A DNA stretch of 64,000 nt from Schmidtea nova (Eukaryota). Positions 33,056-56,832 of this stretch are shown here, one piece after another. The stretch is from contig CM097883.1 of NCBI GenBank assembly GCA_044892505.1, positions 45,570,001-45,634,000 on the forward strand, in the 5' to 3' direction. A program made the position numbers and the translations under genes. Position 1 is the stretch's first letter. Each line of letters starts with the position of its first letter. The notes below the pieces were generated by a model that had not been told where the DNA came from, did not search any database, and saw only the letters and a program-made list of their open reading frames with translations.

Positions 33056-33246
33056 ATCGCAAGGAAACCGATCCACCGAAGGAATATTTGATGTGTATTA
33101 AAAATAAATGTATTAATTTTTGGGTTTTGTTATGTCTTTGAATGTATGAAGCGATCTGAGAGTAAAACACCTGTTTGATAATAAAGATAGTGACTGGGAG
33201 AACAGACAAACCATACATAACCCGATTAATGATACATTTTACAGAG

Positions 33247-36899: not shown

Positions 36900-37370
36900 G
36901 TGCTGACTGGAAAACCCAGCAGACCATGAAATTCGACGAGAGTAAAATGAAACCGGTTTGTTAAGACAAGTAAAGTGGTAAAGACGCTAGCTGGAAAACC
37001 CAGCAGGTCAAGGATAACGATCAGGAAAGATCGAGAGAACAAAAGTGAGTAACAATAAAGTGGTGAAATTGAGGACACTGACTGGAAGACCCAGCAGGTC
37101 AAAAATGATGATCATCGGAGTAAAGAGCAGTTAAAAGTCGACAGTGAAGAGATAAAGGGTGGATAATAAGAGCGCTGACTGGAAAAACCCAGCAGGCTAA
37201 TGAAACGACAATTGAGGTCGAGAATAATGAAGCAGAAGTAAAAGGTGAGATTAAAAGCGCTGACTGGAAAACCCAGCAGGCTAATGAGATAATGAGTGAT
37301 GTCGAGAGTAATAAAGTCGAGATAAAAGGTGAGATGAAAGGCGCTGATTGGAAAGCCCAACAGGCCAACG
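36900..37370 (+). repeat. Six spaced hairpin repeats (gctgactggaaaacccagcagg), period ~85-95 bp
   Basis: Copies near 36902, 36986, 37076, 37172, 37257 and 37341. Confidence 0.9.
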
Positions 37371-38241
37371 AGAGATGTCAGTTGAATTAAAGGTGAATAG
37401 AGATGAGAATTGAAATGAAGTAGTAAACGTAGTGTGAATAGGAGATAAAGTGAGTAGTCGAAAAACAGAGTAGTCGACAGATAAGGGGAAATTAGAACTC
37501 AGAGCCAGAGAAGCCTGAGAAAAAGTAAAGGGGATAATAAGAGCGCTGAGCGACAAAGTAATTGGGGAACTGGGGAAAAGTAATTGGTGTATTTGATAAA
37601 GAATAGATAATTGATGCGACTGCATAGATAATTTAAATAGACTTAAAATCAAGGGAAATGGGAAAAATGGGGATCTTCATGAATTATGACTACACCCGTG
37701 AGAGGGACGAGAAACACGATAACGGGGACGTATCGTGTAAGTGATTATTTGTTTTAAGGAAACAAATCAATCAAGCAATTCAAAGCAATCTAGCAGTCAG
37801 AGCAATCAAAAGAAACAAATCAAAGAAGAAGCAAAGCAAAAGCGGAGTAGAAAAGCAGTTGAGAATATAAGCAGTTGAGGAATAGACAAAATTGAGGGAC
37901 GAGAAACAAGATCAGGTATAATACCAATCTTAACGGAAGCAGAAAGAAAAGCAGCGAAAAGGACAAGAACAGGTAACAAGCCTAAGCAACAAAAGAACAA
38001 ACAAGTAGAGATCAGCGATAATTCGAGTAATAAAGAGAATCAAGAAGAAACCCCAGAAGATCTAGAAGTACAAAACGAAGTAGAGACGATAGACAGTGAA
38101 CTAGTCAGGGAAAACAGAACAAGAAGCGAATCAAGAGATAACGAAACAGAGAGTAGTGAAGAAGAAGAGTCGAATTCAGAAACAAGTGGTGAACTAGAAG
38201 CAAAGAAAACTAGTACAGTATTCCAAGATAGTGGAATCGGG

Positions 38242-41200
38242 ATGAGTGATCACAGAGAGGATCTAAGAGAAAAATTCAAGGGCGAACCATTCAATGGAGA
38301 CGCCAGTAGATTGGACACGTTCCTGAAGGAATTTGGCATATTCGTGGATATATGCGGATGGAGTGCAGAAACGTTAGCGAATCGAATCCCGCTATACTTG
38401 AAAGATAGCGCATTGGATCTGTATATTGAGAAGAGATCGGGAAGTAATCCACCCAGAACGTGGGAAGCAATCAAGGAGTTCTTCCAACAGACGTTTGGGA
38501 TAAATAAAGTGTTGAACGAAGCGTTCGATGAGTTCTCAGCAAGAAAACAGAGGAGAAACGAGTCAAATGCAGTGTACGCAAGCGAATTAAGAAAGTTGGC
38601 GAAACTGGCATTCAATAGAGGAAGCCCAGTAGACGAAGAATTGATGACAGCGTTATTCGTACGAGGTCTCAGGAGACCTGACATCAGAGCACAAGTGGGA
38701 TGCAAGGGATGTAAAACAGTAGATGAAGCGTTGGAAGCAGCCAACCTATTCGAATTGCATATGGCAATGAATGACATGAGAATTACGGCGGTAATGGGAA
38801 AAACGACAGAAGATGAAGAACAAGGAAAAAGAAACATGAATCAAAGTATCCCCCATTCGCAGAGATTGTTCAAAGAACCGCCAGCGAGGAAAAATAATGG
38901 ATATATCACAGTAAACACGAATGGAGGAAACAGTTACAATGACAGGCAGAATAGGCAATGTCAGACGTGTGGAAAAAACGGACATTGGCAACAAGATTGT
39001 TTTCAGAATGTAGCCTGCAAACTGTGTGGACAAAAAGGTCACTCAGAGAATCGATGTTATGGGAAAACGTGTTACACATGTGGAAAAACCGGACACATGT
39101 CAAAAGACTGTAATCAACAGAGAAGTTGGTCAAACAGTGGAAATAGACCGAATTACGGGAATCGACCAAGCTATGGGAATCAAGGCCAACAACGGAACAA
39201 CCCAAACAGCAGTGCAAACGAAGCTAGTATGAAAGAAGCTAAGTTGAGACAGGAGGTATCCAGATTACACGAGATAATCGAAAGCATGGCAAAGGGAAGC
39301 CAACAAGCTGCTCAACCAAAGATAAACATGATCCAGTTAATAGAAGCTGAGGCCGAAAGAGAAAATAGAGAAAGCCAACAGAAACATAATCAAGAATGGG
39401 CTAGAATACGACGAGAAGAAGAACAAGTCAGACAACAACGGTTACAACAGTTAAAGAAGGGAAATCCAAGGATCAACATGATGCGAGCAATGATGGAAGA
39501 AAAGCAGCAGGATGAGTCAGACGAGTTGGAAGTTAAAGAGAAAAGAAACGAAGAGCAGAAACAAGAAGAAGTGAATCAGGAAGTAGAAGCCGCAGAGCAG
39601 AATCAAAAAGTTGAAGAAGTAGAAAAAGAAACGAATCAAGAAGAAGAAGTGAGAATCAAACAAAGAGGAATGTTAGTGATCATGCCGAATGATCACGTGT
39701 GGCGATTCAAATACGATGTAAAAGAAGAAGTGGGGAAATTATTCAATAAAGTAAATAAGATGATTCCGGGAGTGACGAAACTGCCCAGAGAAGCATTCCT
39801 ACAAACAGAGGATTTGCCAGAAGTAAAATTGAAGATGACTGACACATGGGAAGATATGGGAGTAACAGAGACGAAAATAAACGTGATGATCATCAGAGAG
39901 GTGGAACCGGAGAAAATTCCCCCACCAGTGAAACACCAAACTCGGATCAGTCGAATATTCAAGGGAAAAATAAGACGAAGACGGTTGGAAGAAATAGATG
40001 AGTTAGAGAAAAGAATGGGAAAAGCTGAAGTAACGGGAAACGAAAGTGAACTAACACAGGAAGTTAGCAAAAACGAAGCGAGACCAATCGCGCATATTGG
40101 GATGCTGAGACACCCAAGACAAGAGTTGTCAGATGAAGAAGACGACAGCGAAGTTAGCAGTCTGGCAGGAGACATGCTAAAGGAACCGGAAAATGAGGAC
40201 AAAAAGATGGAAGTAGTCGAGACAATAGAAACAGTGTCGGTAAAGGAAGACGAAATTCAGAAGCTGATGGATAACGCGTTGGAAGTAATCCATAACGAGG
40301 AGTTTATCGACAGTAAACGACACCGAAAGTTCATACGAGCAGTATGGCAAATGAAGTATAAAGAGTGGTTACAAGAAAGAGAAGTGAGAATAATACAAGA
40401 ATTTATTGAGAAGCTTCTAAAAGAACCACTCAACGAATACATAATACAGATATGGATAAACGAGTGTTCACCGAGAATCTGGATAAGGAATCCAATGACG
40501 GATGGAATTTACAGATGGGTTGAAGACAGATTGGGAAGCTCGTACAAAGACAAGTTCATCTATTCGGAAAACGGATTGGTGAAAAAGGGAACGCATATGA
40601 TAGACACAGGCATCTGGCCAGGAGAAATAACAACGTTATCAATATGCAACACCAAAAAGGAAGAGAATCTACAAGGAATCGTCAAAGAAGCGAATACGTG
40701 TTACGAGATGAGAATAAAACCTCAGTTGATAGAGGCAAAAGAGAGAATCTTGGCAGAGAATTTGAATACGATGATAGAACAGATCATCCAACAAATCAAG
40801 AAACATCGAAAGGAATTGACGAAAAGCGAGTATGAGAATTTGAAGCAATGTATCGAGAACATACGAGATACAAGTCAAACGAGACATTCAAATTTCAAGA
40901 CGGACAAGCTAATTGCAAAGATGGGAAAAGAAATGTTTAAAAGAGGGGAAATATCAGATCTGAGGATTACCGTGAGATTACCGAACGAAGAAACAAGACA
41001 AATTGAGGTAATACCAGATAGTAAAGTGGGAGAAATAGTAGATGTCATCAATGAGACGATATTACAACGAGAACGGGAAGATGAATTCGAGGACGACATT
41101 GCGATAAAATACAAAGAACACCTACTGAATGAACGTGACGAAAGACGAGCGTATAAAATCGGCATATGGGATAATTATCAGACAATACATGTCATCAGAA

Positions 41201-44200
41201 TGGATGATGTGCCAAGAGCAACACCAAGAGATGAGGAAAGGAAAAAGAAACGACGAGAGGACGTTATGCGTAAGCTGAGGCAGATAGTAGAAATTTATCG
41301 GAACTGGCAGATGAAGCCAGAATGGGAGACAATATTGGGAGAATTGGATCTTAACAGACGACGATTGACGCCAGTAGAGAAACAATGGGATAACAAAGAG
41401 AAATGTTGGAAAGTGAAAAGAGGCGTGTATGAAGAAGATCCGGAAGGAGAAGACAGATATGAACGGAATACGAAACGGATATGTATGGTAACAAGGAGGA
41501 TATTACCAACGGACTTAGACGGACCAGAAACTGCAGTAATATGGGCAGAATTGGAGAAACAGAAAACGAGTGAATTGATCGAGCTGTTGAGAGGAAATAC
41601 TCGGGGAAAAAGACAAACAATAAAAGGCTTAGCACAATTCATAATCACAAATGGGGAAGACATAACGAACTTGAGAAAAGTAGCTAAAGCGATAGCAGAA
41701 TACAAGAGAGTAAATGAGTGGTGTCCGGAGCAACTAGACGATGTAATAAAAAAGTGGAGAAACAAAGAGTTTGCGGAAGAAACGCCACAGAAAATACATT
41801 TGAGGATAATGTATCCGAATCAAAGAAAAGAAGAGTTTTGGGTGATGCTAACGGAAAAAGTGAAAAGTGTTAAAGAGAAACTGATGTACGAACTACCATT
41901 CCACCTGCAACATCAAGGACGATCGTTGGATAACAATTTGGAAATCTGGCTGACACCAGTGCAATTGGATCTAATGAATACGCTAACAGTGGCACAGATA
42001 GTAGGTCAACCACTGAAGTTTAAAGAGGAAAAGAAAACGAAAGGAAGCATGAGTACACCAAGTCCGAAGAAGTCAACAATGACCCCAGGAACAAGTTCGG
42101 GACAAACAAGGACAACGCCAGTAAAAATCAGAGAGGGAACACCGCCAGAAGCGTATGACGTAGATGAGATACTAACAGACAGTGATGAAGCGATAGAAGA
42201 ATTAACAAAGTTGACTCAAAAACCAACGGCGAATATTTTTGACAGAATAATAGAGATGCCAATAACGTCACCAGCAGAAATCGACGATCAAGGAGTGGAA
42301 CAGGAGGTAGTCATAGAAATGGTAAACGATTCGGAAGACGAGCAAGAACAACCACAGTTTACTCAAGAAATGGAAAGATGGTTAGAACAACGAGCAAACG
42401 AAGGAAGGGATGTTACAGAAGAAACAGGAAGAGCAACGAGATTTGTAGAAACCGGAACTGGAATGGAAAAACGACCAAGAGGAAGACCAAAGATAGATCC
42501 AGCAACAACAATCCCAAAAACAAGGGAAGAAAGGAGACAAGAGCAATGGGAAATTTGCTTGAAGAAACTGGATAAAATCGCAGAGATCCGAGGCAAAGAG
42601 GAGAATCAAGTTTGTCAAGGAGAAGAATGGCTCACCAAAACGATAATGGATGTGTTAGCGATAATTGACCCAGAATTAAAGAATTTGTGGCGGATAAACG
42701 AACCCAGTACAAAGGCAAGGATGCTGCACAATGCGATAACACCAATTATGCCAGAATTAATAAAAGCGAAAACAAAATCAAATCATCTAGATTGGCAAGG
42801 AACCACGATGTTAATAAAAAGGCTACTTAACGGAGCAGAAACGGACAGCAAATATATGGTAGCAATCTCGTATACGATATACAATTTGCTAACGCTAAGC
42901 CGAGGAAGTCCGAAGTCAAGTCCGATGGGAAGACATATTAAAAATACGGCGATGATTATCGAGAAAGAAATTGAACCATATATCCTCAGAAAAGGAGGAT
43001 GGGAAAAGTTCATAAAAGAGAACCAGACAAAAGAGGGTTCAAACGTGATGAGAAAGAAACTTGAAGGAGTATTGAGAGAAATGGAGAATAGACAAACGAT
43101 GCAAGAAAACGGAAGATCGACGTTGAATTTAAACTCGATAATCATGATGATGTTAGTATGGTTGTTAAGCACGGAAGGTGTAACAACATTTGAGGTATTT
43201 GATTGTGATCAAATGAAGTTAGGAGAAAAGTACTCATTGAGAGGTACGGAGCAATGCAAAGATGCAACTCCAGTAGAATTGAAAGAGATCAAAAAGGAAC
43301 AATGGTACCACTTGTATCAAGAGGCAGAACTAATAAAGACAATGGTGAATGAATGCAAAGTGCAAAAGACGAGATTCGCATTCTATTGTGGGAGAGGACA
43401 TTATTCAGCAATTGTCATGCCAGGAACGGAAAGAGAACCAATCGTGTTGCAAGGGGAAGACTGCGAAGCATTATTTAAACATGGAGAAGTAACAACAAGA
43501 GATAAAATCAAGATAAAAGGAAAACCAGGAATGATGTTACAGCAGACGTATTATGTAGCAGGACGAATTACGGGAGGAGAAGGATATTGTCAAGGGGAAA
43601 CCTACCCAATATTCGGAGCACCTGCAACCAACTTAGTGGTGATGGATACGTACATAGTCGAACTGAAAAGCTACGAAGCATTCTTCGAACCGACAACCGG
43701 AGAAATGAAAACGTTATCCATGTGTAAAATTGACAGAAGCATGTGTCAAACGGGAATGTCAACATTGGTGTATAAACCGAAAGTGAACGAATGTCAATTA
43801 CAACTGCTACAAGGAGCAAAGTTCGACGAAATTCAAGGAAAAACCTTCCAAGAAGAAGACGATGATGACAAAGCTAGAGCAAAACATCTCAAAGAAGCGT
43901 TAGAGAACAAAAGACAACTGAAATCAGAGCAGAGAGAAAAACGGATAGAGATGAGAACCACACCAACAGTGTTGATAACCACAAACCAGGATGTGGGAAT
44001 GAGATTCATAAAAGGGAAAGCAACCCTTAAGTGCAGTACAACAGTATACGAAACGAACTATCCAGGAATATACGTGTCAAAGCAGGAAGTACCGAATGCG
44101 AAACCCAAGATCGACACAATGGATATCAAGCTACACTTGTATGTGAATAATAAAATGGACTTCTTATTCCATAGAGGACAAGCCTCGTTGCAAAAAGTGT

Positions 44201-47200
44201 ACTATGATCTGATAAACAACGATTGTATACTGAACCGGGAAATATTAAAGACAAAGTTGGCCGTAGCGATTACGAATCCAGATAGCGCGATGCCATTATT
44301 ACCACTGAGAGAAGGACATTTCGGAAGAGTGGTCGGAGAAGCAATGTACGTATACATTTGCGAAAAGACACACGCATCGCTAGCAGCAACAACGCAGTTG
44401 AAACCTGGACAATGTACAAACGAACTAGAAATCGATTATAAAGGAAAAGTACGATACGTTCAACCGGTGACGAGAATCATCAATCCACCAGGGTTTGAAC
44501 CAAATCCATTCAACTGTAGTAACGCGTACGGACCGCTTTATCAGAAACCAGATGGTAAATGGGTTATGTTCCCAGGAAGAACCGAAGTATTAGCACCAAG
44601 AGAATTTGAGCTAATGCAGTTGTCAAAAGATAGACAGTTCAGCGACGTAGATGTCTCAAACAACGGAATCTATAGTCCAAAAGATTTAGAAGCAGCAAGG
44701 CAGAATATATTATTCCCGGCAAGAAGAGAAGCATTACTGTCAAATATCGTAACGATAACGGGAGGAACGAATTATCGAGAAGGACCGAATTACGAACTGC
44801 TGTTGTCACCGGCACATTTCAAGAAAGCCACAGAAAACATGATGAAGGCAATGTGGGGAAGATTCCTGATATTTGGACAAATGATGGCTGGAATACTGGG
44901 TGTTATATTGATAATACAAATCGTCAGGGTGATAATAACGCAAATGTTAGCGTGTTTTGATATCTACAAGAGAGAGAAGAAAGTGAATTGGAAAATGGTA
45001 GTAGGGTTTTTACCATTTCTTGCGAAAACAATGGTGTTACACGGACACTCAAAAGACATACATCGAATAAAGAGGTTGTTGAAGATACTTGCAAAAATGA
45101 AAGGAACTAACGAAGATGTCGGAAGGAAATTCAAAAAGATAATGCAAGATGAACAAGCAAGGCGACAACTAAAGAAAGAAAGGAAAGGATTATGGGAAAG
45201 AGTGAGAGGATATCGAACGCAAGATGACTCAAGCAATGATGATGATGACGATGACGATCGAGGAGGACAAGCGAATATAAACCAGATTCCACAGTATAAC
45301 GAAAAGAGCACAGTTGAGAATTGGAGATACAGCGCTCCACCTCAATCAATGTACAACGAACCTATATACAAAGCGAAGCCGAATATGATGCAGATGATGC
45401 CGATGACAAGTAGATACCCGATAATTCCAGAAGACTGCAAAGTAAAACGAGGTGGAAGTGTAAACTCGTTAGAAGACACGCACACGATAGCAGTTATGTC
45501 CACAAATATGGGACCCATCTTAACAACAACCGTAGAAATAAACGGAAGAGAAATTGAAGCTATGATCGATACAGGCGCGAATATTTCGGCGATCGACATT
45601 AATTATATACCAGAGAAAAATCAAGGAGAAATCGAGAAGACGAATGTGCATGTAATCGCGTGCAGTCAAGAGACAGTAGAAGTAGCCGGAAGATGGTTTG
45701 TAAAAATTAAGCATCGAGGTGCAGAAATCAACACGTACATCGCTGTAATACCATCGCTGAGTGTACCATGTATTATTGGAACTGACCTGATGCCAGACCT
45801 GTTCAAGGAAATCGTAATTGATCTAGGAGCAATGAAGTTAAAAGATAGGACAGGGAAAATCTGCAGAATGAAAGTTAAAGTGGCAAGTGCGGAACAAATA
45901 GTAGTGCCAGCGAGGCACGAAATGATGTGCTACGTCAAGATCGATTCGACAATAAAAGGAGATATGGTATTCGAACCAAGTAAGAAGTTCGAAGCAAAGA
46001 AAGAATTACCAATGGCAAGAGAATTGGTTACGATAAACCAAGAAGGTGAGATACCAATTAATCTGGTAAATTTCGACGAAGAGGACAAGATAATATACGA
46101 GAATGAGAATTTGGGTAAATTGACACCCATGTCCGAAATCGAAATACCAGACAAGAACGAGAAAAGCAAAGACGAATTACCATGGAAAATCGACAGTGTG
46201 TTGTTAGACGAACGACAAAAAGAACAGTTACAGAAACTGTTGATGGAATATAAAGATATATTCGCAACATCAGATCTAGATTTGGGAACATGTGATGTAA
46301 CATTGCACACGATACCGTTGACGGACGAAACGCCAATAGCATTAAGACCATATAAACTGGCAGAAGCTCAAAAAGCAGTGGCAGAAGAAGAAGTACAAAA
46401 GATGTTAGATGCAGAAGTCATCGAACCTAGTTGCTCACCCTGGCAATTCCCAGTGGTGATGGTGAAAAAGAAGGATGGAACTCAGAGATTCTGTATCGAT
46501 TACAGACGATTAAATGCCGTTACGAAAAGAGATACGTACCCACTGCCAGACATAAACGAAATGTTGTTGACGTTACAAGGAGCAGCCTATTTCACGTCAC
46601 TGGATTTAAAGAGCGGATATTGGCAGATCAAAATGAAAGACGAGGATAAAGAGAAGACAGCATTTACAATCGGACGAGATCTGTACCAATTCAAGAAAAT
46701 GCCGTTTGGGTTAACAAACGCGCCAGCATCATTCCAGAGATGCATGAATTTCGTAACACATGGCATAAAACAATGCATGGTGTACATTGACGATCTATTG
46801 ATCTACTCCGCAACATTCGAAGATCACTTGCAAGACATCAGAAACGTGTTCGTGAAATTAAGGCAATGGAAACTGAAATTGAAGCCGTCAAAGTGCGATT
46901 GGGCAAAAGAAAAAGTGACATTCTTAGGTCACATTGTGTCAGCGAAAGGAAAAGAACCAGATCCAAGGAATATCGAAAAAGTCAAAGAATGTCCACCACC
47001 AAAGACAGTGACTCAAATACAAGAATTTTTGGGATTGTGTGGATATTATCGAAAGTTTATCAAGGACTATGCAGGAATATCAAAGCCAATGCAAGAATTG
47101 GTAAGACAAGACGTGTCGTTTGTGTGGGGAGAAGAGCAACAAGCAGCATTTGAAACATTACGAGATAAGCTGATTACAGCACCAATATTGGCCCATCCAG

Positions 47201-50200
47201 ACTTTAAGAAGCCATTTCTGTTGGCAACAGACGCAAGTGGATATGCAGCAGGAGCAGTACTAGGCCAATTTGACGAAGAAGGCAAGGAAAGAGTAATCGG
47301 ATATTACAGTCGAACATTCAGAAAGCATGAAAAGAATTACTCAGTCACGGAAAGAGAAGCCTATGCGATAATATTGGCAATCAAGCATTTCAAGTACCTA
47401 TTGTGGGGTCATGAAATATATATCACGACGGATCATCAACCATTGGTATGGTTAGGCCAACATAAAGAATCATCAAGTAGATTGATGCGTTGGGCGATGC
47501 AGTTACAAGAATACTCGCCATTCATAAAGTTTAAAGCAGGAAAAGCAAATGCGAACGCGGATTGCATGTCAAGGTTTACATTTCCAGAATTGGTGAACCT
47601 AAACGCTCTGAAAATATGTGCATTAATAGCGGAAGATTTGGATTTCAGCGAACTAAGGAAAGATCAACTCGAAGACGAGGAGTTGGGAATGATCAGCAAG
47701 TATTTGAAAGAAAGGGAAATAGAAATATTCGACAAGAACCAAACGTTGCGCGAACATATGCAGAAATATCAACATAGATATGTGATGGAAAAAGGATGGT
47801 TATTGATACAAGATGGAGAACGGAGATTGATGTGCTTACCTGCGAATAGACGAAAGGAAATCATGACTCAATATCATGACGGAAAATTAGGCGGACATAT
47901 GTCAGCGAAAAAGACAATCGGGAGATTGAGACAAAAGTATTTTTGGCCAACCATGGAAGATGATGTGAAAGAATGGATAAAGAACTGCTTAACCTGTGCA
48001 ACAAGAAAGAACGTCGGAACGAAGTGGAAAACACCACTAAAACCTATGCCAATACCTGCAGAACCAATGGCAACAATAGCAATGGACGTAGTTGGGCCAT
48101 TGCCGGAAAGTTTGAAGGGAAATCAATACATATTAGTAGTCACGGACTATCTAACAAAGTTCCCAGAAGCATTCGCAATACCAGATCAAAAAGCGAAAAC
48201 AGTCGCGAGAATATTGGTGGAAGAGATATGCTGCAGATACGGAACACCCAAGAAAATCCTAACGGATCAAGGAACAAATTTCATGAGTGAAATATTAGAC
48301 GAAGTTACGAATTACTTCCGAATCGCAAAATTACGAACATCCCCATACCATCCACAAACGAACGGACAAACAGAAAGGTTCAATGGAACATTGATACGCA
48401 TGTTGTCAAATTACGTCAGCAAACACCAGACTGACTGGGACGAGTATATAAACTTGTGTTTAATGGCATACAGAATGTCAATACATGCGGCAACAAAGCT
48501 AAGTCCATTCCAACTGATGTACGGAAGAGACTGCAACTTACCGATCGATTTAGAATACCAACCACCATTATCACAGTACATGGAGGTTGACGATTACGTG
48601 ACGAAGTTCAAAGAAAGAATGCAAGAGATCTGGAAAACGGCGGAACTGAACATCAAGTTCTATCAAGAAAGTTATAAGGATCTACATGATCAGAAAAGGA
48701 ACGTGAAAGCACATGATTTAAAAGTTGGAGATTGGGTGATAATTGAGACACCAGAGATAATACCCGGTACGGTCAAGAAACTCCAACGACTCGGCAAAGG
48801 GCCATATGAAATAACAACAGTAAACGAAAATAATGTGCGAGTACGATTGGTGAACAATCCATTGGTAAGACCAATATACGTGAATGCATGTCGATGCAAG
48901 AAAATACCAAAGACAGCAACTCTATCACCAGAGAAACGGGTAATGACAAGATCACAGACGGCGAGAATCAGTATGTTGCGAGTACAACAAAAGCCGCAAA
49001 CAAGTCTAGAAGACAATCGAAGAGAAGCAATAGACATCAAAGAACTGGCAAAGAGGACCAGAGAAATCATACCAGAATGGAAATGTTGGTTCGATTTCAA
49101 TATACTGTCAGAAGTTCGAAAGAATGTAATGGAGTATGCGAAGGATAGAACAGCACACCCAATAACAAGAACGCTGCTAGAGGAAATCCCTCAAACATTG
49201 AATCTACAAGACAAAGACGGTAACACCGCGTTGCACAATGCAATCAAGCACAGTGGGAACGAAAAAGTGAAAGAGATCGTAGAGATGATACTCGAAGGTG
49301 GAGGAGAAATTGACAAAATAAATTGGGAAGGAATCACTCCACTTATGATGATGACGATTCATGGAAGAAACGACGAGATAATCAAGCTATTCGGAAACAC
49401 CAGATCGAATTGGATGACAAAAGATAAAGAAGGACGAACGTTCTTGAATCATGCAATCGATAGAGCAAATCACCGAATACTGAAGTATATCACGGAAAAT
49501 GCCACGTGGGAAATCGACGAACTAACTAGAGGATCTATCATGAAACAAGCAATCGGGGTAAAGAATAGTAAAACCTGGAGAATATTGCTAAAGTGGAAAC
49601 GACCAGAAGGAGATTCGTGGGTCATGGATTGTAATGAAGTGTTCATAAAGGGAGAAAATGCGCTACTGAAACATTTATTAGAAGTAACATACGATCCAAA
49701 AACACTTGCAGTATTAATAGCAAGAGATACTCTACGAGTCAGCGAGAACCCAAGAGAATACAAGCTGGAAGACAGAAAGAAAGAACTATTCGGATTAATC
49801 AAGAAATGGTGCGATAAGCAATGGAATCCGGATATGAGCTTCGAACATTTCTATGACATCCAAAAACAACACAAAGAAATAAGCAAGCGATATAAAGAGC
49901 TGATAGAAGCATTGAAGTATGGACAATTCTTCAGACAAGCAGTGTATCAAGACCAACGAATGAAACAGATGCAAACGCGAATAAGAAGCAAAGCAGTGTT
50001 GTTCAATGCAAAAGCCGATTATCAAGAGAGATTAAACGCAATCGTGGCTAAAGCACAGGAGAAATTATCGGAATTCAAGGAGAATAAAAATTCGTTGGAA
50101 ATACTAGGAACAATTACAGAGAAAGTGCACAGATATGCAGAAGGGGATTATAACGAGAGTGACATAGAAACGATCAAGAACCAAATGCCAGTAGCATTCC

Positions 50201-53121
50201 TATTATCAAAGGATGGGAGATTGCCGATACACTGGGCATTACGTCGAAAGAAAGAAAACGAAGTGCTAGAAATAACGAAAGCAATGGTCAAATGCGAAGC
50301 GGACATGAATACGGTTGATGATAACGGAGATACAATCATGATAATCGCGGCAAGGAAGAAGACGAACTGCAAAGTGCTAAACGAGTTATACGCAGCAGGA
50401 ACAAAAATCGAAGGGAAGAATGGAAAGAACAATTCCATCATAGATATCGCAATACAGTGGAACAACTTCGAGATGATCAAGTTCATAAAGTCCATCAAGA
50501 GACATGAGGACATAGAATACCTGGCAAATAACGTAAAGAATTTCAGTCTAACAGTAATGATACACGACGTAGAGAAAACAAGAGCATTACTAACATGGGT
50601 GAATCCGATCAACAAGGAACCAGTGTTCAAGATCAATGACCATATGGAACAGAATCAGAATTGGTGTATCAGAAGCGCGTTATTAAGACATAAAAAGCCA
50701 GAGATAGTAGAAGAATTCTTGAAGAGAAGAGATTTGAAGTTCACGAACAATCCAAAGGAACCCGAACGAACGGGAAGATGGAAAGACTTGTTCAGAAAAT
50801 ATGTGAATGAATGGACAAATGCCAAAGGAGCAATCAAGCAAAGTAGACTAGAAGACAGGGAACCATCCAAGGAGATGGAAATACGTGAATTCGAGTCTAG
50901 CGCACTCGCGGTTCAAGCGTATGAAAGATTGATTGAAGAAATTAATGTCGAGGACGACATTTCGAAAGGACCAGGGGGTGGTTACAGAGACTTCGACGAC
51001 AAAAGTAACAACGAAAAGAACAACGAAGACAATGACAACAAAAGAACAGAAGATAATGAAAAAGAAAGACAAGAAGAACCAAAGCCAACGAGAAACGACA
51101 AAAAGGAAGAAGCCGAAGAACGAGAAAACAGCGGAACAAAAGATGAACGTACAAACTATGGAAAACGAACAGGAAGTCTACTTTGGAGACCGGAAATGTT
51201 GTGCATTGCGATATTGTTAACAATCATCGGACAAGGAGAAGCCAAGAAACAATACGTCACGCTAGAGATAATTAGAGGAAATGAAGTATACGAAAGAATA
51301 TGCTGGAAAGAAAATCTGAAGAAAAACGATACGCTGAAGTGTATGTTGTCAGACTTGAAGCGAGACGTCATCCAAATCAAAGGGTTGGAGAAAGAAAAGT
51401 CATACATAATATGCGCAGTAAAGCAGAGAGGAGAACCAAAAGCACCTCAAGTAACTGCATGTCAACTATACAAAGCAACAGAAGCGCTGAAGATACAGAA
51501 ATGGATTGAGAAAAGAAGCGAAGAGACAACGAGAAGAACAGAAGTGGAACCAGAGAAAGGGGAGAATCAAACCGAAGCAGAAGAGGGAATCAGAAACCGA
51601 ACAGAGAAAGAAAGAATAACCAAAAATCCAGCGGGCAAATTAACATTCCAACCAGAATTGATATGTGTAGCATTAATATTAATCCTCATTAAGAGAATCA
51701 TGGAGGACATAGATATCAGCGTGATGACGTTAGTAAACATCCAAGATCAACGAACAACGAATGGAAGATGTTGGGGACGAAACAATGAAGTAATTGGAAT
51801 CAGCGAAACAAGAGAAAGTCGGGAAGCAGAGACAAATGAAGAAATCGAAATAACAGAAATAGAGACAGATAAAAAATGTGAACTATGTCTCATGGAAAAG
51901 GCAGCAAACGGGAACAGACCAGGAACAAGCGAGTGTAAAGTGTTCCAAGCAAAGGAGATAATTGAGTTCCCAAAAAGAAAGAAACAAGATCAAGAAATGA
52001 TTGCGAATGAGGTAGTAACAGTGGAGATAAAAAACATGGGTCGGAGAACAATTGGGATGTGTTGGAGAAAATACATCGGAGTATCGACCAGTCACGTAAT
52101 ACCGCAATGCAGGACGAGAGAACGAGGAATCCCGTTTCAACTAAATGGATTCGAAGTCGGACAAGCCTACGAAATTTGCGTAATCCGAAGAATAAGAGAA
52201 GTAATACAAAGAAGCCTGGAGTGCAAACTGTACAAGACGCCAGAGCAAATTAACGGAACAAGAACGATCGAAATGGGAGGAAGTCGACAGAGGAAAAGAA
52301 AGTCAAGAAGAACCACGACAACCAACAGTCAAGAAACTCAACAGACAACAACGGAAAGGACGTCAATAAAAAACGAACCGGAATCAACGACTCTGATAAT
52401 ATGGAAGATCCATAAAAAGGTCCTAGAAATCTGTTGGACATTAATGCCAAACAGTATGAGAGAGTCTCCACGAAACTGTCAAAAGACATCAAATGACAAA
52501 AGGGAAATAATCGAGGTAGAAATGAGGAGGTTGAAAACAAACGCGGAATACGAAGTGTGTGCAATCGAAGAAGTAGACGCACAAGGAAATCAACAAGAAA
52601 GGTGCGAAACCTATTACACGCCAAGGAACATAACGATAAAAGGGGGAACCCGCAAGTTAGAATTCCGAGAATTGAGTCAGAAGAGAGAACAAAACGAGAA
52701 GGAAGAAACAATACCAAATCAACAAGAAAAATGGGAACCAGAGAAAGTGATCGAAGAAGTCAGACGGAGACAACAACAATACGAACAATGGGAAGCAGAA
52801 TGGAAAGGTCAATATGGCGTGATGATAAACCAAAGTGAAACTCCGAAGATGAGCATTGGGAAAACAATAATGGGATTAATCAGCATGGGAGTATTCATAG
52901 GGTGTATACCGCTGATAACGATCATGATAGTATGTTGGAGATATGGCATGAGAAATAAGACCATAGCAGTAAAGTGGCCGGACGTAAAGGTCACGAATTA
53001 CAACATAAAACTACCAAAGGAAGTACGAGAAGAACTGAAAAGACGATCAAAACACGAAGAGATGTGGGTACAGATCGAAGACGAAGAACTGTACGAAGGA
53101 AAACCAGTGATAGTTGTATAG
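38242..53121 (+). CDS. gag-pol: 4959-aa polyprotein Gag-ZnK3-UBL2-BCL2-Env-PR-RT-RH-IN-ANK-FN3-like-TM
   Basis: CCHC x3 (38959-39110); IDTGA (45568); YIDD (46783); ATDASG (47221); HHCC, MDVVGP and LSPFQLMYGR integrase; ANK (DKDGNTALHNA, EGITPLM, DGRLPIHWA); BH2-like YILRKGGWEKF (42979); glycoprotein 43130-45050. Confidence 0.95.
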   Translation: MSDHREDLREKFKGEPFNGDASRLDTFLKEFGIFVDICGWSAETLANRIPLYLKDSALDLYIEKRSGSNPPRTWEAIKEFFQQTFGINKVLNEAFDEFSARKQRRNESNAVYASELRKLAKLAFNRGSPVDEELMTALFVRGLRRPDIRAQVGCKGCKTVDEALEAANLFELHMAMNDMRITAVMGKTTEDEEQGKRNMNQSIPHSQRLFKEPPARKNNGYITVNTNGGNSYNDRQNRQCQTCGKNGHWQQDCFQNVACKLCGQKGHSENRCYGKTCYTCGKTGHMSKDCNQQRSWSNSGNRPNYGNRPSYGNQGQQRNNPNSSANEASMKEAKLRQEVSRLHEIIESMAKGSQQAAQPKINMIQLIEAEAERENRESQQKHNQEWARIRREEEQVRQQRLQQLKKGNPRINMMRAMMEEKQQDESDELEVKEKRNEEQKQEEVNQEVEAAEQNQKVEEVEKETNQEEEVRIKQRGMLVIMPNDHVWRFKYDVKEEVGKLFNKVNKMIPGVTKLPREAFLQTEDLPEVKLKMTDTWEDMGVTETKINVMIIREVEPEKIPPPVKHQTRISRIFKGKIRRRRLEEIDELEKRMGKAEVTGNESELTQEVSKNEARPIAHIGMLRHPRQELSDEEDDSEVSSLAGDMLKEPENEDKKMEVVETIETVSVKEDEIQKLMDNALEVIHNEEFIDSKRHRKFIRAVWQMKYKEWLQEREVRIIQEFIEKLLKEPLNEYIIQIWINECSPRIWIRNPMTDGIYRWVEDRLGSSYKDKFIYSENGLVKKGTHMIDTGIWPGEITTLSICNTKKEENLQGIVKEANTCYEMRIKPQLIEAKERILAENLNTMIEQIIQQIKKHRKELTKSEYENLKQCIENIRDTSQTRHSNFKTDKLIAKMGKEMFKRGEISDLRITVRLPNEETRQIEVIPDSKVGEIVDVINETILQREREDEFEDDIAIKYKEHLLNERDERRAYKIGIWDNYQTIHVIRMDDVPRATPRDEERKKKRREDVMRKLRQIVEIYRNWQMKPEWETILGELDLNRRRLTPVEKQWDNKEKCWKVKRGVYEEDPEGEDRYERNTKRICMVTRRILPTDLDGPETAVIWAELEKQKTSELIELLRGNTRGKRQTIKGLAQFIITNGEDITNLRKVAKAIAEYKRVNEWCPEQLDDVIKKWRNKEFAEETPQKIHLRIMYPNQRKEEFWVMLTEKVKSVKEKLMYELPFHLQHQGRSLDNNLEIWLTPVQLDLMNTLTVAQIVGQPLKFKEEKKTKGSMSTPSPKKSTMTPGTSSGQTRTTPVKIREGTPPEAYDVDEILTDSDEAIEELTKLTQKPTANIFDRIIEMPITSPAEIDDQGVEQEVVIEMVNDSEDEQEQPQFTQEMERWLEQRANEGRDVTEETGRATRFVETGTGMEKRPRGRPKIDPATTIPKTREERRQEQWEICLKKLDKIAEIRGKEENQVCQGEEWLTKTIMDVLAIIDPELKNLWRINEPSTKARMLHNAITPIMPELIKAKTKSNHLDWQGTTMLIKRLLNGAETDSKYMVAISYTIYNLLTLSRGSPKSSPMGRHIKNTAMIIEKEIEPYILRKGGWEKFIKENQTKEGSNVMRKKLEGVLREMENRQTMQENGRSTLNLNSIIMMMLVWLLSTEGVTTFEVFDCDQMKLGEKYSLRGTEQCKDATPVELKEIKKEQWYHLYQEAELIKTMVNECKVQKTRFAFYCGRGHYSAIVMPGTEREPIVLQGEDCEALFKHGEVTTRDKIKIKGKPGMMLQQTYYVAGRITGGEGYCQGETYPIFGAPATNLVVMDTYIVELKSYEAFFEPTTGEMKTLSMCKIDRSMCQTGMSTLVYKPKVNECQLQLLQGAKFDEIQGKTFQEEDDDDKARAKHLKEALENKRQLKSEQREKRIEMRTTPTVLITTNQDVGMRFIKGKATLKCSTTVYETNYPGIYVSKQEVPNAKPKIDTMDIKLHLYVNNKMDFLFHRGQASLQKVYYDLINNDCILNREILKTKLAVAITNPDSAMPLLPLREGHFGRVVGEAMYVYICEKTHASLAATTQLKPGQCTNELEIDYKGKVRYVQPVTRIINPPGFEPNPFNCSNAYGPLYQKPDGKWVMFPGRTEVLAPREFELMQLSKDRQFSDVDVSNNGIYSPKDLEAARQNILFPARREALLSNIVTITGGTNYREGPNYELLLSPAHFKKATENMMKAMWGRFLIFGQMMAGILGVILIIQIVRVIITQMLACFDIYKREKKVNWKMVVGFLPFLAKTMVLHGHSKDIHRIKRLLKILAKMKGTNEDVGRKFKKIMQDEQARRQLKKERKGLWERVRGYRTQDDSSNDDDDDDDRGGQANINQIPQYNEKSTVENWRYSAPPQSMYNEPIYKAKPNMMQMMPMTSRYPIIPEDCKVKRGGSVNSLEDTHTIAVMSTNMGPILTTTVEINGREIEAMIDTGANISAIDINYIPEKNQGEIEKTNVHVIACSQETVEVAGRWFVKIKHRGAEINTYIAVIPSLSVPCIIGTDLMPDLFKEIVIDLGAMKLKDRTGKICRMKVKVASAEQIVVPARHEMMCYVKIDSTIKGDMVFEPSKKFEAKKELPMARELVTINQEGEIPINLVNFDEEDKIIYENENLGKLTPMSEIEIPDKNEKSKDELPWKIDSVLLDERQKEQLQKLLMEYKDIFATSDLDLGTCDVTLHTIPLTDETPIALRPYKLAEAQKAVAEEEVQKMLDAEVIEPSCSPWQFPVVMVKKKDGTQRFCIDYRRLNAVTKRDTYPLPDINEMLLTLQGAAYFTSLDLKSGYWQIKMKDEDKEKTAFTIGRDLYQFKKMPFGLTNAPASFQRCMNFVTHGIKQCMVYIDDLLIYSATFEDHLQDIRNVFVKLRQWKLKLKPSKCDWAKEKVTFLGHIVSAKGKEPDPRNIEKVKECPPPKTVTQIQEFLGLCGYYRKFIKDYAGISKPMQELVRQDVSFVWGEEQQAAFETLRDKLITAPILAHPDFKKPFLLATDASGYAAGAVLGQFDEEGKERVIGYYSRTFRKHEKNYSVTEREAYAIILAIKHFKYLLWGHEIYITTDHQPLVWLGQHKESSSRLMRWAMQLQEYSPFIKFKAGKANANADCMSRFTFPELVNLNALKICALIAEDLDFSELRKDQLEDEELGMISKYLKEREIEIFDKNQTLREHMQKYQHRYVMEKGWLLIQDGERRLMCLPANRRKEIMTQYHDGKLGGHMSAKKTIGRLRQKYFWPTMEDDVKEWIKNCLTCATRKNVGTKWKTPLKPMPIPAEPMATIAMDVVGPLPESLKGNQYILVVTDYLTKFPEAFAIPDQKAKTVARILVEEICCRYGTPKKILTDQGTNFMSEILDEVTNYFRIAKLRTSPYHPQTNGQTERFNGTLIRMLSNYVSKHQTDWDEYINLCLMAYRMSIHAATKLSPFQLMYGRDCNLPIDLEYQPPLSQYMEVDDYVTKFKERMQEIWKTAELNIKFYQESYKDLHDQKRNVKAHDLKVGDWVIIETPEIIPGTVKKLQRLGKGPYEITTVNENNVRVRLVNNPLVRPIYVNACRCKKIPKTATLSPEKRVMTRSQTARISMLRVQQKPQTSLEDNRREAIDIKELAKRTREIIPEWKCWFDFNILSEVRKNVMEYAKDRTAHPITRTLLEEIPQTLNLQDKDGNTALHNAIKHSGNEKVKEIVEMILEGGGEIDKINWEGITPLMMMTIHGRNDEIIKLFGNTRSNWMTKDKEGRTFLNHAIDRANHRILKYITENATWEIDELTRGSIMKQAIGVKNSKTWRILLKWKRPEGDSWVMDCNEVFIKGENALLKHLLEVTYDPKTLAVLIARDTLRVSENPREYKLEDRKKELFGLIKKWCDKQWNPDMSFEHFYDIQKQHKEISKRYKELIEALKYGQFFRQAVYQDQRMKQMQTRIRSKAVLFNAKADYQERLNAIVAKAQEKLSEFKENKNSLEILGTITEKVHRYAEGDYNESDIETIKNQMPVAFLLSKDGRLPIHWALRRKKENEVLEITKAMVKCEADMNTVDDNGDTIMIIAARKKTNCKVLNELYAAGTKIEGKNGKNNSIIDIAIQWNNFEMIKFIKSIKRHEDIEYLANNVKNFSLTVMIHDVEKTRALLTWVNPINKEPVFKINDHMEQNQNWCIRSALLRHKKPEIVEEFLKRRDLKFTNNPKEPERTGRWKDLFRKYVNEWTNAKGAIKQSRLEDREPSKEMEIREFESSALAVQAYERLIEEINVEDDISKGPGGGYRDFDDKSNNEKNNEDNDNKRTEDNEKERQEEPKPTRNDKKEEAEERENSGTKDERTNYGKRTGSLLWRPEMLCIAILLTIIGQGEAKKQYVTLEIIRGNEVYERICWKENLKKNDTLKCMLSDLKRDVIQIKGLEKEKSYIICAVKQRGEPKAPQVTACQLYKATEALKIQKWIEKRSEETTRRTEVEPEKGENQTEAEEGIRNRTEKERITKNPAGKLTFQPELICVALILILIKRIMEDIDISVMTLVNIQDQRTTNGRCWGRNNEVIGISETRESREAETNEEIEITEIETDKKCELCLMEKAANGNRPGTSECKVFQAKEIIEFPKRKKQDQEMIANEVVTVEIKNMGRRTIGMCWRKYIGVSTSHVIPQCRTRERGIPFQLNGFEVGQAYEICVIRRIREVIQRSLECKLYKTPEQINGTRTIEMGGSRQRKRKSRRTTTTNSQETQQTTTERTSIKNEPESTTLIIWKIHKKVLEICWTLMPNSMRESPRNCQKTSNDKREIIEVEMRRLKTNAEYEVCAIEEVDAQGNQQERCETYYTPRNITIKGGTRKLEFRELSQKREQNEKEETIPNQQEKWEPEKVIEEVRRRQQQYEQWEAEWKGQYGVMINQSETPKMSIGKTIMGLISMGVFIGCIPLITIMIVCWRYGMRNKTIAVKWPDVKVTNYNIKLPKEVREELKRRSKHEEMWVQIEDEELYEGKPVIVV

Positions 53122-53244
53122 AGGGTGGAATATGAGTGTAAATAGTATTGTAAAAACCAATGCATAACCGTATACGTATGGGTATAAATATTATAAAACA
53201 TAAAAACAAGAAAAAGAGAATGATGTATATAATCTAGAAAAACG

Positions 53245-53595
53245 ATGAATCAAGAAACCACAGAGATGTCGATGATGACAAGATGGAAAGTGCAATGTGA
53301 CCTGCTAGCCAGAACAGTAAATGAATTACAGAGCCAGTTGACGGCAAAAACGCAATTATTAACCGAGAGTTATAACTGTAATTTCGAAGCAATGAACAAA
53401 ATCGAGATCCAACAAATACAGATAAACGAATTACAGAACGAGAACCGAACATTAAATGAAGTGAACAACTGGCAAGCAGAGGAAATTGATCGATTAACGA
53501 GACATGAAGAGGAGGAGATACCGGATAGTTGGACGAGCTGGATTGTAAATGAGATAGACGTGTATCCAGAGCCAGATTCAACGGAGGATGTATAG
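53245..53595 (+). CDS. Small coiled-coil protein with acidic tail
   Basis: Heptad-rich LARTVNELQSQL..LQNENRTL; ends YPEPDSTEDV. Confidence 0.65.
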   Translation: MNQETTEMSMMTRWKVQCDLLARTVNELQSQLTAKTQLLTESYNCNFEAMNKIEIQQIQINELQNENRTLNEVNNWQAEEIDRLTRHEEEEIPDSWTSWIVNEIDVYPEPDSTEDV

Positions 53596-53684
53596 TGAAT
53601 AAGCGGAAAATTGTGTAAATACGTGTAAATAAAGAACCAGAAAAATCAAAAATATGGGGAAATTGATGTAAATATTGTTGTAGA

Positions 53685-55097
53685 ATGAGAGCAGAAAGCG
53701 AAGCAGATTACCAAACAATCGAGATTCTAAGAGGAGAGAATCGACAATGGGGAGTAAATGTGACGTGTGTAAAGTGTAAAAATTTACTGTTAAAACCGAG
53801 ACAAACCGAATGTGGTTGCAGGATGTGCACCAAATGTATACTACAAATAATCAGTGAAAGTGAGACAAGAAAGTGTCCAGAGTGTGAAGATAAACTACTA
53901 ATCAACGAGACGAAACCAGATAAAGCAATACAAAAGGAGATCTGGAAGATAAAAACAGAATGTATAAACCAACCATGTGAGTGGAAAGGTCAAATAATCG
54001 AGCTAAGACAACATCTGGAGAAATGCAAAAATAAGAAAACGATATGTGAAAAGTGTCAACAGACGATAACCATCAAGCAGTCGAAAAAGCACAAGGATGA
54101 GTGCAAAGCAGAGATAGTAGAGTGTCAATACTGCAAACAAAGAGAGACGAGAGAAGTAATCGAAACAGAGCATCTCAACGTAGCAGAAGAGAAAGTGTGC
54201 GGAAAATTCAGAGGAATTTGTCCAAGTAATTGTGGAGCCAGAGAAGAGGTGATGTTGAAAGAACATTGGGAACAGTGCGAATCAAGACCAAGAAGGTGCG
54301 TATGGAGTAAACAAGGATGTTTAGTAAAGAAAACGAGCAAAGAAATGAAAGAGCATTTAGAAACAGAGACAGTACAACACGCAGAGATGCTAACAGAAAA
54401 TTTAAACGGAATGGAACAAACCATACAGAAGCTGGGAAAAGAAATCGAATCTCAGAGAATAATGACGGAGTTATTACTAGAAACAAGAGAGCAATTCGAG
54501 CTCACCAGAGAGAAAATGATGGAGAAAATCAAAGTCATAGAGACATTGGTAAAAGAAGTAAACGTGCGACATCAAATGTGGGTGCGAGATGCAGAGGATA
54601 TCGAGAGTTTACCTGTTGCACCATATATATGGAAAATCAAGAATTTCAACGAAAAGTTCGCAGCAGCAAAAGCAGGAAGTCAAGTGTCGGTAACAAGTCC
54701 ACCATTCTATCTGTGGAAAAATGGATACAAAGTCCGGATGAGAATTTATCCAAATGGAGATGGATCAGGAAAGGAAACGCATGTGTCATTATTCTTTGCG
54801 TTGTGTAAAGGTGGTTACGACGACATATTAGAATGGCCACTAGAAACAAAGGCTATAATGAGAGTGAAAAACTCGAAAGAAACAATAGCGAGAGTATTCA
54901 AAATTGATGGTAAGCACGAAGCTTACAAAAGACCAACCACAGAATGTTCATTAGCGACTGGAGAACCAAAATTCATACCACACCAAACAATGTGGGAAAT
55001 GTTGTACGACGACAACTTATATGTAGAGTTGGAGATCGAAAAGAAAACAAGTACAACAGTGATGAACACGAAGTCAACGAAAGGATGGTTAGAGTAG
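53685..55097 (+). CDS. traf: Full-length TRAF-family protein (RING, TRAF zinc fingers, coiled coil, MATH)
   Basis: CVKC..LL.KPRQTECGCRMC..C...CPEC; YIWKIKNF; SPPFY...GYKVRMRIYPNGDGSGKETHVSLFF; DDILEWP. Confidence 0.93.
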   Translation: MRAESEADYQTIEILRGENRQWGVNVTCVKCKNLLLKPRQTECGCRMCTKCILQIISESETRKCPECEDKLLINETKPDKAIQKEIWKIKTECINQPCEWKGQIIELRQHLEKCKNKKTICEKCQQTITIKQSKKHKDECKAEIVECQYCKQRETREVIETEHLNVAEEKVCGKFRGICPSNCGAREEVMLKEHWEQCESRPRRCVWSKQGCLVKKTSKEMKEHLETETVQHAEMLTENLNGMEQTIQKLGKEIESQRIMTELLLETREQFELTREKMMEKIKVIETLVKEVNVRHQMWVRDAEDIESLPVAPYIWKIKNFNEKFAAAKAGSQVSVTSPPFYLWKNGYKVRMRIYPNGDGSGKETHVSLFFALCKGGYDDILEWPLETKAIMRVKNSKETIARVFKIDGKHEAYKRPTTECSLATGEPKFIPHQTMWEMLYDDNLYVELEIEKKTSTTVMNTKSTKGWLE

Positions 55098-55186
55098 TCA
55101 GAGTGAACGACCCTGTAAATAAAGTGTAAAAATCGACAACAACAATAAACGTATAGTGTAACAAGTGTAAATTTGTAAATTGCAGA

Positions 55187-56347
55187 ATGGAAAACGCAAA
55201 TGGACATGTAATCGAAGAGGAAACGAGAAACGAGATGTCAAACGAACAAGAAGCAATAGAAAGAGAAATCGAAAGGAGATGTAAAATGGAAGTGGAACAA
55301 AGAACCAGAGAATTACACGAAGTGATGACAAACAATTTCTACGAGAAACTGAAATGCGAAAGACAAATGGAGTTATATCAACTAGAACTCGAGGAAGTGA
55401 ATAAAGAGATAGTACAACTGACAACACAAATAGAGAAGCTTGAAGGAACGAATGTACGAAGTCGACAGAAGATAGAAGAGACCTATCAAATGATGAGAAA
55501 ACAAGCAGAACATTATAAAAATATGATGAAAACGCGAAGAGAAGAGAGGGAGAAACAAGAGGAAAAAATGGAGGTAAAAATACTAGCAATCAAAACTCAA
55601 GCGAGACATTGGAAGATGGAGTCGAAACGAGTATATAAAGAAGCCAAAGAGATAATCAGAAAGACAGCATACAGCGAAGATTGGAAACTGTATCAAGAGA
55701 TAGACGAATTGAAAGAGGAATTAGAACAGAGAAAGCGACAAGAACAGACAAACAAAGAATGGAGTCGAAAACGGCAACGATTTATTCGAGAGCAAGCGAA
55801 GGAACTAAAGAAAACGCAATGGCAAATACAGATGATAAATGGAGAAATGCGAGGCATTAGACAAAGAGAAGAAGCGGAAAGACAAAAGTTGATCAGGGAA
55901 AAAGAAAGTCTGGAAAGAGATGTAAATGGTTATCAAGGGGTGGTGACCCAAAAGAAAATGGAACTGAAAGCTGTGAAGGAAAGACATGCGGAATCAAACC
56001 GAGCTTACGAGGAGAATATAACGAATTTGACGAAAGAAAATGAGGAACTGAAACAGCAGATAATAACCCTGAAAGCAGAGAAAGAAACCACAGAAGTAGA
56101 AACCGAACCAACAGAAGTAGAAGACATGAAGAGAAAAGTGGAAGAGATGGAAAGACAAATTGAAACTCTGAGCGAACAATCAGACTATATGGAGTATCTG
56201 TTAGATGAAGAGATACAAATCTCTCGAACGTATCAAGATGAAATTGCAATGTGGAGAAGCAGAGTGGTGTGGTTACCATTTATACCACCACCACCAATGG
56301 AGCTCCAAGATGAAGGGTTTCATGAACCAGAGGAGACGGATGTGTAA
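55187..56347 (+). CDS. Long coiled-coil (SMC/myosin-like) protein ending in ETDV
   Basis: 386-aa E/K/R/Q-rich heptad ORF with a PPPP motif near the C-terminus. Confidence 0.7.
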   Translation: MENANGHVIEEETRNEMSNEQEAIEREIERRCKMEVEQRTRELHEVMTNNFYEKLKCERQMELYQLELEEVNKEIVQLTTQIEKLEGTNVRSRQKIEETYQMMRKQAEHYKNMMKTRREEREKQEEKMEVKILAIKTQARHWKMESKRVYKEAKEIIRKTAYSEDWKLYQEIDELKEELEQRKRQEQTNKEWSRKRQRFIREQAKELKKTQWQIQMINGEMRGIRQREEAERQKLIREKESLERDVNGYQGVVTQKKMELKAVKERHAESNRAYEENITNLTKENEELKQQIITLKAEKETTEVETEPTEVEDMKRKVEEMERQIETLSEQSDYMEYLLDEEIQISRTYQDEIAMWRSRVVWLPFIPPPPMELQDEGFHEPEETDV

Positions 56348-56515
56348 AAAGAGGCGAAAAATCCGTGTGTAAAAATGTACAAATCGATGTAACAGGTATT
56401 AATCAGTAGAATAATCAGAAATGAACTGGCTCAAAACCCTACCAATCCTAACGATTATGTTAACTACAACAACAATGAACTGTTCAACAACCGAAATCCA
56501 AAGAACCCTGTCAAA

Positions 56516-56832
56516 TGAGAATCAAATATAATAAAAACCCGGATTCATTTGAAGCTGCAGATATCTAACAATTAACTTACCCTAGGACACTAGAAAGGAG
56601 CTTAAGTGGGACCGAAAGAAAGCCACAGACACCTTCTATCGGTAGTGGTGGACCCGTGAATAAACAAGGGAATAGTAGCCGAAAGGTTGCTCACCTGCCT
56701 TGTCATTTCACAACGTTGACACAGCACCAACATGATGAGTAGTTAGGGATACATCATGGGTGTCAGCGGGGGAAATGTTTTTATGTTGGCGAGATCACCC
56801 TAACGTATAAAATCATAAGGATCTCAGTTGTC
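56516..56832 (+). repeat. 3' LTR segment (317 bp, apparently identical to 33859-34175), cut by gap
   Basis: tgagaatcaaatataataaaaacccgg...ggatctcagttgtc at both sites. Confidence 0.93.

Follow-up and report, generated by a model that had tools for sequence, protein, structure and literature searches.

The 64,000-nucleotide window of Schmidtea nova DNA analysed here (64 kb) carries a giant Ty3/Gypsy long terminal repeat (LTR) retroelement, whose single main open reading frame (ORF) continues beyond the integrase (IN) into ankyrin repeats and then into a region of hydrophobic segments and Cys-bearing repeats, which we call the arm. Very probably the arm is processed into a membrane protein whose ectodomain is luminal. 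Our full reading, that it is a second type I glycoprotein and serves the gB-type Env encoded in the same ORF as its partner in attachment or cell contact, has in our estimate a probability of about one half. The element type and its ankyrins are already known; the second surface protein is undescribed as far as we have searched, and it is clade-wide.

The polyprotein and its membrane arm

The ORF (37879-53121; all features lie on the plus strand unless stated otherwise) has 5,080 codons from stop to stop, or 4,959 counted from the Met at 38242. Along it, Pfam recognised CCHC knuckles, a mononegavirus/gB-type fusion glycoprotein, protease (PR), reverse transcriptase (RT), RNase H (RH), IN and ankyrins, in this order. 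The Env, complete from its signal through its transmembrane segment (TM), is in frame between Gag and PR at 43135-44937 (PF24664, E 8.5e-73; hydropathy). IN ends at about aa 3697 (nt ~48970) and ~1,380 aa remain downstream, which confirms the stretch of ~1400 aa that a sequence-only reading had placed after the integrase. In the ankyrin and arm regions each of the other five frames contains 13-69 stops, and the arm is like the rest of the ORF in its third-codon composition. The exact ORF sequence was not present in the searched protein collection. Because there is no stop or frameshift along the ORF, the arm would be made together with Gag and Env.

Three hydrophobic segments define the arm. 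The first, H1 (51196-51243, core at aa 4440-4450), is signal-like, with a basic N-side and a plausible signal-peptidase site that we place after Ala4455 by a general cleavage rule. The second, H2 (51658-51690, core at aa 4594-4604), is also signal-like and has an uncharged core of 11 residues. No 11-mer of the ORF is more hydrophobic than H2, and H1 comes second. The final TM (52864-52938, aa ~4996-5020) is an uncharged run of 25 residues and the best hydrophobic 19-mer of the ORF; its basic C-side corresponds to a type I orientation, and it is followed by a 60-aa tail (52939-53118) whose last residue is Val. By hydropathy, then, the signal-like segments proposed near 51195 and 51660 and the final anchor are all present. 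H1 and H2 share an upstream motif, so that H1-R1 and H2-R2 represent two copies of one cassette made of signal and repeat. No splice acceptor was obvious by eye ahead of H1 or H2.

The repeats are R1 (51247-51501, from aa 4457), R2 (51715-51969, from aa 4613), R3 (52006-52260, from aa 4710) and R4 (52378-52632, from aa 4834), the last of them preceded by a basic and a Thr-rich linker (52309-52362). Their pairwise identity is 17-25%. For five of the six pairs at most 1 of 2000 shuffles scored as high (29/2000 for R2/R4), and in a leave-one-out assay the profile made from any three repeats recovered the fourth (E 2e-8 to 3e-5). Both results uphold the four repeats of the sequence-only reading, not the consensus that it had written for them: CW, the last two Cys and one Thr are the only invariant residues in all four, the middle Cys occurs in three, and G[LF]E is present in R1 and R3 only. 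R2 lacks the middle Cys but has a Cys at the position of a Tyr in the others, so that four Cys are kept in each repeat. The arm contains six sequons, at aa 4483 in R1 and at aa 4792 and 4917 (after R3 and R4) among others, against 3.4 expected, and such counts are uninformative for topology.

Structure models were made for R1 and R3, R2 and R4 being described from sequence only. By title, 34 of the 50 neighbours of the R3 model are fibronectin type III (FN3) domains, and nine more, which we count as FN3, would bring the number to 43; CD45 is among the neighbours of R1. Foldseek searches against PDB and viral libraries gave nothing at E 0.001 or better, although the top PDB rows were nonetheless FN3 scaffolds, and no FN3 profile matched the repeats in Pfam (fn3 included), PHROGs or PDB sequences. 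The FN3-like nature claimed earlier for the repeats is thus favoured by the model neighbours and lacks a counterpart in sequence profiles, and we hold it with moderate confidence. The nearest folds are the FN3 domains of animal receptors such as Dscam, fibronectin and CD45, which the repeats, as modelled, resemble in the all-beta sandwich, the strand-B Trp and the E-F turn motif. The arm repeats differ from them in being shorter (six strands in the R3 model, against the seven-strand sandwich of FN3 topology), in having four Cys each and in matching none of them at the sequence level. Matches to MIT, HIPIP, annexin and phrog_18590 (E 2e-4) were weak and implausible and were set aside, and a suspected resemblance to LRRN/LRFN/FLRT proteins, whose FN3 bears Cys, found no confirmation in the accessible part of PMC2235866.

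Between IN and H1, the ankyrins announced near 49200-49480 and 50210-50480 were recovered by Pfam (Ank_2 E 3.2e-19), with the strongest stretches at nt ~49216-49323 and ~50230-50490. They form two clusters of approximate borders, 49111-49578 (Pfam Ank E 5.2e-9; PDB ankyrins E 2e-18), predicted to be cytosolic, and 50191-50508 (Ank_2 E 2.2e-7 when this part was searched alone). A home-made ankyrin profile was too insensitive for counting the repeats (1 significant). The suggestion of an IkB-like module found no support: the module is split in two clusters, no DSGxxS degron was found in it, and the best PDB matches were generic ankyrins and DARPins, the IkB-family protein Bcl-3 appearing first in row 53 of the 60 shown. 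The protein search with this region, whose range did not include proteins of IkB length, gave 56 ankyrin-rich matches, for which no RT or integrase family was named. A DSG-x3-S degron-like motif does occur elsewhere, at 38227-38247, just before the putative Gag Met and within the 121-codon open upstream extension.

The post-integrase slot in related elements

Searches for homologues of the arm found none, whether in 1.84 billion representatives (threshold E 0.001) or in 1,494 candidates with lengths of 2,727-8,679 aa (threshold E 0.01). For this reason relatives were sought with the PR-IN region, which gave 418 matches of 2,028-5,000 aa; the relatives were drawn from the 120 matches listed. 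Upstream of PR, fourteen of these have a match to the window Env; a fifteenth, truncated at its N-terminus, matches the window ankyrins. Ranked by RT-RH identity, the same 15 also head the listed matches, with 51-57% against at most 48.6% for all others. A quick tree was built from 54 rows, which comprised the window, its 15 relatives, 8 other env-bearing matches and the 30 next-best of 112 usable ones. In it the relatives and the window form one clade with SH-aLRT 99, the window being on a long branch.

A strongly hydrophobic segment follows IN in 14 of the 15 relatives, and 12 of the 15 have a signal, an ectodomain of 100-390 aa, a TM and a tail of 34-120 aa (a fixed 11-mer rule finds two segments in 11/15; it overlooks two TMs and accepts a weak segment). 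Two others have a signal and a Pfam Ig domain (Ig_3, E 4e-8 and 1.5e-5) without a clear TM, and the remaining one has nothing. Outside the clade a post-IN hydrophobic segment is found in none of the five other Gag-Env-Pol matches, and in 13 of 101 non-clade matches. In five of the 13, Pfam recognises a fusion protein at that place, weakly to clearly (E 4e-13 to 0.08); of the other eight, P0129 consists of two elements fused together and seven carry no annotation. These segments look like ordinary C-terminal Env, though perhaps not in every case.

In ten relatives the slot carries another Cys-bearing repeat, with an FN3-like E-F motif recognised by eye. Compared with 15 such repeats from these ten relatives, the window repeats showed no significant homology (for the best, R4, 6 of 300 shuffles scored as high). 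Since the same layout is kept with repeats that are not detectably homologous, the slot is conserved and its cargo has been exchanged. The ankyrins are also mobile cargo in the clade: they lie after IN in P0093 and between Env and PR in P0077, and were undetected in the other 13 of the 15. A C-terminal Val, which we take to be a PDZ ligand, ends the tail of 9 of the 12 TM-bearing relatives, as it does in the window, against 9 of 105 other matches; this statistic is inflated by kinship, and the ending nevertheless recurs across subclades. The tails of several relatives are Tyr-rich. As a separate observation, P0073, P0079, P0080, P0084, P0087, P0088, P0093, P0095 and P0096 have extra aspartic-protease-like domains downstream of IN and, in some cases, in the interval from Env to PR; the window has none.

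These comparisons bear on a further alternative, in which the arm is a piece of a host gene that became joined to the pol end by accident and is carried passively with no role. The failure to find homologues in the protein searches would agree with it; against it stand an open frame of 650 aa, Cys conserved across repeats of such low identity, the element-like codon composition and the recurrence of the layout in 12 of 15 relatives. We consider this explanation largely refuted and very improbable.

With respect to processing, the ORF has seven copies of a [RK]-I-x-x-hydrophobic motif, some of them where the capsid/nucleocapsid (CA/NC) and RH/IN junctions are expected. Another of the seven is a candidate viral-protease junction at the end of IN (48964-48978), 28 residues past the last IN motif, with rank 4 of ~5,074 in a leave-one-out position weight matrix (PWM). 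P0095 and P0096 have a strong and near-identical site at equal distance after IN, and in the other relatives the sites are weak (ranks 4-81). It should be noted that the motif was defined after inspection and counts as support, not as proof. This junction-like motif and the signal-ectodomain-TM-tail layout of the relatives support the earlier proposal that the C-terminus of Pol yields, by cleavage, a second membrane protein.

The topology is simple in the 12 relatives, which fit a type I membrane glycoprotein directly, and at the sequence level H1 and the final TM of the window fit it too. H2 complicates the window copy: three hydrophobic segments are in conflict within one chain, and this weighs against our reading. 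H2 may slip through after H1, it may be the working signal with R1 left behind, or it may be a stop-transfer. This copy could then have a split topology, either with H1 as signal and H2 as stop-transfer, so that only R1 would be extracellular and R2-R4 cytosolic, or with H1 skipped and H2 as signal-anchor, which would leave R1 in the cytosol, or as a mixture of forms. The three segments themselves, the rank of H2 as the most hydrophobic 11-mer, a weak junction-like motif after it (PWM 6.0, rank 14) and its lack of an obvious peptidase site speak for such an arrangement. However, the uncharged runs of the relatives measure 20-30 residues for TMs and 12-27 for signals, and the 11 of H2 fall far under the TM range; a stop-transfer at H2 would moreover force the final TM into the orientation opposite to its charge bias, with the Val-ended tail in the lumen, and the number of Cys is even in all four repeats. 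A split topology is improbable in our view. A luminal position of R2-R4 is favoured, since the final TM (25) is like the anchors of the relatives, H1 (14) is in the signal range and H2 (11) just under it, the tail ends in Val and the Cys counts are even. H2 may all the same be the working signal.

Proposed role of the arm

In the mechanism that we propose, the polyprotein would cross the membrane of the endoplasmic reticulum twice. Env would go first, PR-RT-IN and the ankyrin module would remain cytosolic, and the internal signal after the ankyrins would restart translocation. Signal peptidase would then free a second type I glycoprotein, in which FN3-like repeats with disulfide bonds are followed by a stalk, a single TM and a short Val-ended tail. 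The viral protease would separate the ankyrin module from IN and, as there is no strong junction site directly before H1, the module would probably stay tethered to the membrane by H1 after signal-peptidase cleavage. The tail may place the arm at cell junctions or at a polarised surface, where it would aid cell-to-cell spread.

To our knowledge, Env-bearing LTR elements are usually thought to have one surface protein. There are viral precedents for a division of labour, given that herpes gB and paramyxovirus F depend on separate attachment proteins; gD or gH/gL in the first case and HN/G in the second accompany the fusogen as surface proteins bearing beta-sandwiches. The comparison is a works-like analogy, with no homology shown, and here both partners would come from one retroelement polyprotein. 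Extended to the clade, our proposal is that invertebrate Gag-Env-Pol Gypsy retroviruses use a two-glycoprotein entry system made from one polyprotein. Its central part would be the fusogen, conserved and of gB type, while the old env slot would hold an attachment protein of FN3 or Ig type that can be exchanged and whose PDZ-binding tail directs it to cell junctions. We advance this generalisation tentatively. If true, a swappable receptor-like protein would separate attachment from fusion throughout the clade, as in herpes- and paramyxoviruses, and ectodomain swapping would set tissue tropism.

The main rival keeps the glycoprotein but assigns it another task, that of a host-modulating decoy or signalling protein which, with the TRAF, RING, ankyrin and Bcl-2-like cargo, would block cell death or immune signalling and have no part in entry. 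It draws on the TRAF and RING accessory ORFs of the element, on ectodomains that are interchangeable among FN3-like, Ig and Cys-rich types, on the Tyr-rich tails, on CD45 as a structural neighbour of R1 and on the cargo of Burro elements, which in the accessible part of their description consists mostly of apoptosis and ubiquitin domains (PMC6431247). Two points oppose it: the slot is fixed at the canonical env position after IN and co-translated with Env clade-wide, and no ligand-binding family was recognised in the arm. We judge this decoy role to be rather unlikely.

Returning to the attachment partner, errantiviruses of GAG-ENV-POL order with an HSV/gB-type env have been described in flatworms, bryozoans and nematodes (PMC13524379), and share with our element the gene order and the class III env. 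The window Env and that of Smed_errantivirus_1 (supplementary file 3 of the same work) have clear motifs in common, judged by eye and without alignment. In the main text of that paper, ankyrin, fibronectin, immunoglobulin and Burro do not occur, and its accessible passages describe no second glycoprotein. The sORF2 of MDG1-group retrotransposons is likewise an accessory TM protein of a Gypsy element tied to cell-to-cell transfer, but in the portion of PMC11952523 available it is a short FAST-like fusogen encoded by its own small ORF in env-less elements, whereas the arm has a large multi-domain ectodomain and stands beside an Env. The literature searched on such elements describes no second glycoprotein, FN3 repeats or PDZ tail, although published figures and older element descriptions could already mark the region. 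A second surface protein would account for part of the unannotated half of Burro polyproteins, and the arm offers a testable handle on whether and how giant elements pass between the cells of a regenerating animal.

The element and its surroundings

The assignment to Ty3/Gypsy follows from the PR-RT-RH-IN order (Pfam) and the terminal direct repeats, which enclose the unit at 33859-34175 and 56516-56832 (317 bp, 100% identical). The 5' repeat, delimited by its identity to the 3' copy, is placed at 33859-34202, and the full LTR may be longer; the 3' repeat (56516-56832) is interrupted by an assembly gap of N. Directly after the 5' repeat, near 34203, there is a primer-binding-site-like sequence, presumably of the tRNA-Pro type. 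Rfam and tRNA scans of the 64-kb window gave no matches. A RING ORF (34743-35216; zf-C3HC4_3 E 3.4e-9) lies upstream of the main ORF, and downstream are a TRAF-like ORF with RING, zinc fingers and MATH (53667-55097; MATH_2 E 3e-27) and a coiled-coil ORF.

This is a Burro-like giant Gypsy element, not filed as Burro1-4 and likened to Burro by published description, not by sequence; the named matches of the protein searches included no Burro sequence. Its architecture and AT-rich flanks suggest a planarian host. In the accessible part of that description, Burro/GYPSM1 of dugesiid planarians has one ORF of ~5,000 aa (4,873 and 5,140 aa), an env of mononegavirus type that lies between gag and pol in the same frame, CCHC knuckles, accessory ORFs, and ankyrin, MATH/TRAF, BIR and BCL2-like motifs (PMC6431247). 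These likenesses apply to our element, except for BIR and with a candidate motif only for BCL2 (see below), and for ankyrins in giant Gypsy polyproteins, at least, a precedent exists where the sequence-only reading had known of none. A C-terminal membrane protein is not mentioned in the same part of the source. TRAF is in a downstream ORF in the window, but inside ORF1 in S. mediterranea and upstream in D. tigrina (PMC6431247, as far as accessible); unlike in Burro/GYPSM1, no BIR domain was matched in the main ORF or in the accessory ORFs scanned. The window element measures 22.7 kb from repeat start to repeat start, with its 3' repeat entering the gap, against >30 kb with long LTRs for Burro/GYPSM1. 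Burro maps are described with tandem repeats, and BURRO1 is abundant and tissue-enriched according to the available portion of PMC8532177.

Some minor observations on the element can be added. Its 5' leader contains a 19-bp tandem array (35900-36600) and an 84/91-bp repeat (36900-37380). A YAG acceptor-like site precedes two accessory ATGs, so splicing or trans-splicing may express them. TGTAHATA, which we take to be Pumilio-element-like, occurs six times against 1.9 expected (2/300 shuffles), and all six matches are downstream of the main-ORF stop (53122-56520), five in the spacers between the 3' ORFs and one within a 120-aa ORF. In the stretch 42556-43182 of the polyprotein, inspection by eye showed a BH2-like motif (aa ~1705), which precedes the Env signal by ~45 aa; searches of this region in Pfam and PDB gave no support for a Bcl-2-like domain. 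The Env signal could also serve a Bcl-2-like product as its C-terminal membrane anchor, as H1 could for the ankyrin module.

Ahead of the 5' repeat are two small ORFs of no known function (32441-33055 and 33166-33810). Diverged homologues of them occur at 22.9-26.7 kb, beside a repeat of 72-84% similarity, and at 10.5-11 kb; the regions concerned (31459-34194, 22739-26669 and, on the minus strand, 10519-10953) may represent either long LTRs with ORFs inside them or what is left of related elements. Elsewhere in the window, a Helitron Rep/PIF1 helicase ORF with internal tandem duplications of ~1.5-2.1 kb occupies 1-9861, an RT-bearing ORF, which may belong to a Penelope-like element, is duplicated in inverted orientation over 1.9 kb at 13751-18478, and an unrelated Gypsy RT-RNase H fragment lies at 61898-63145.
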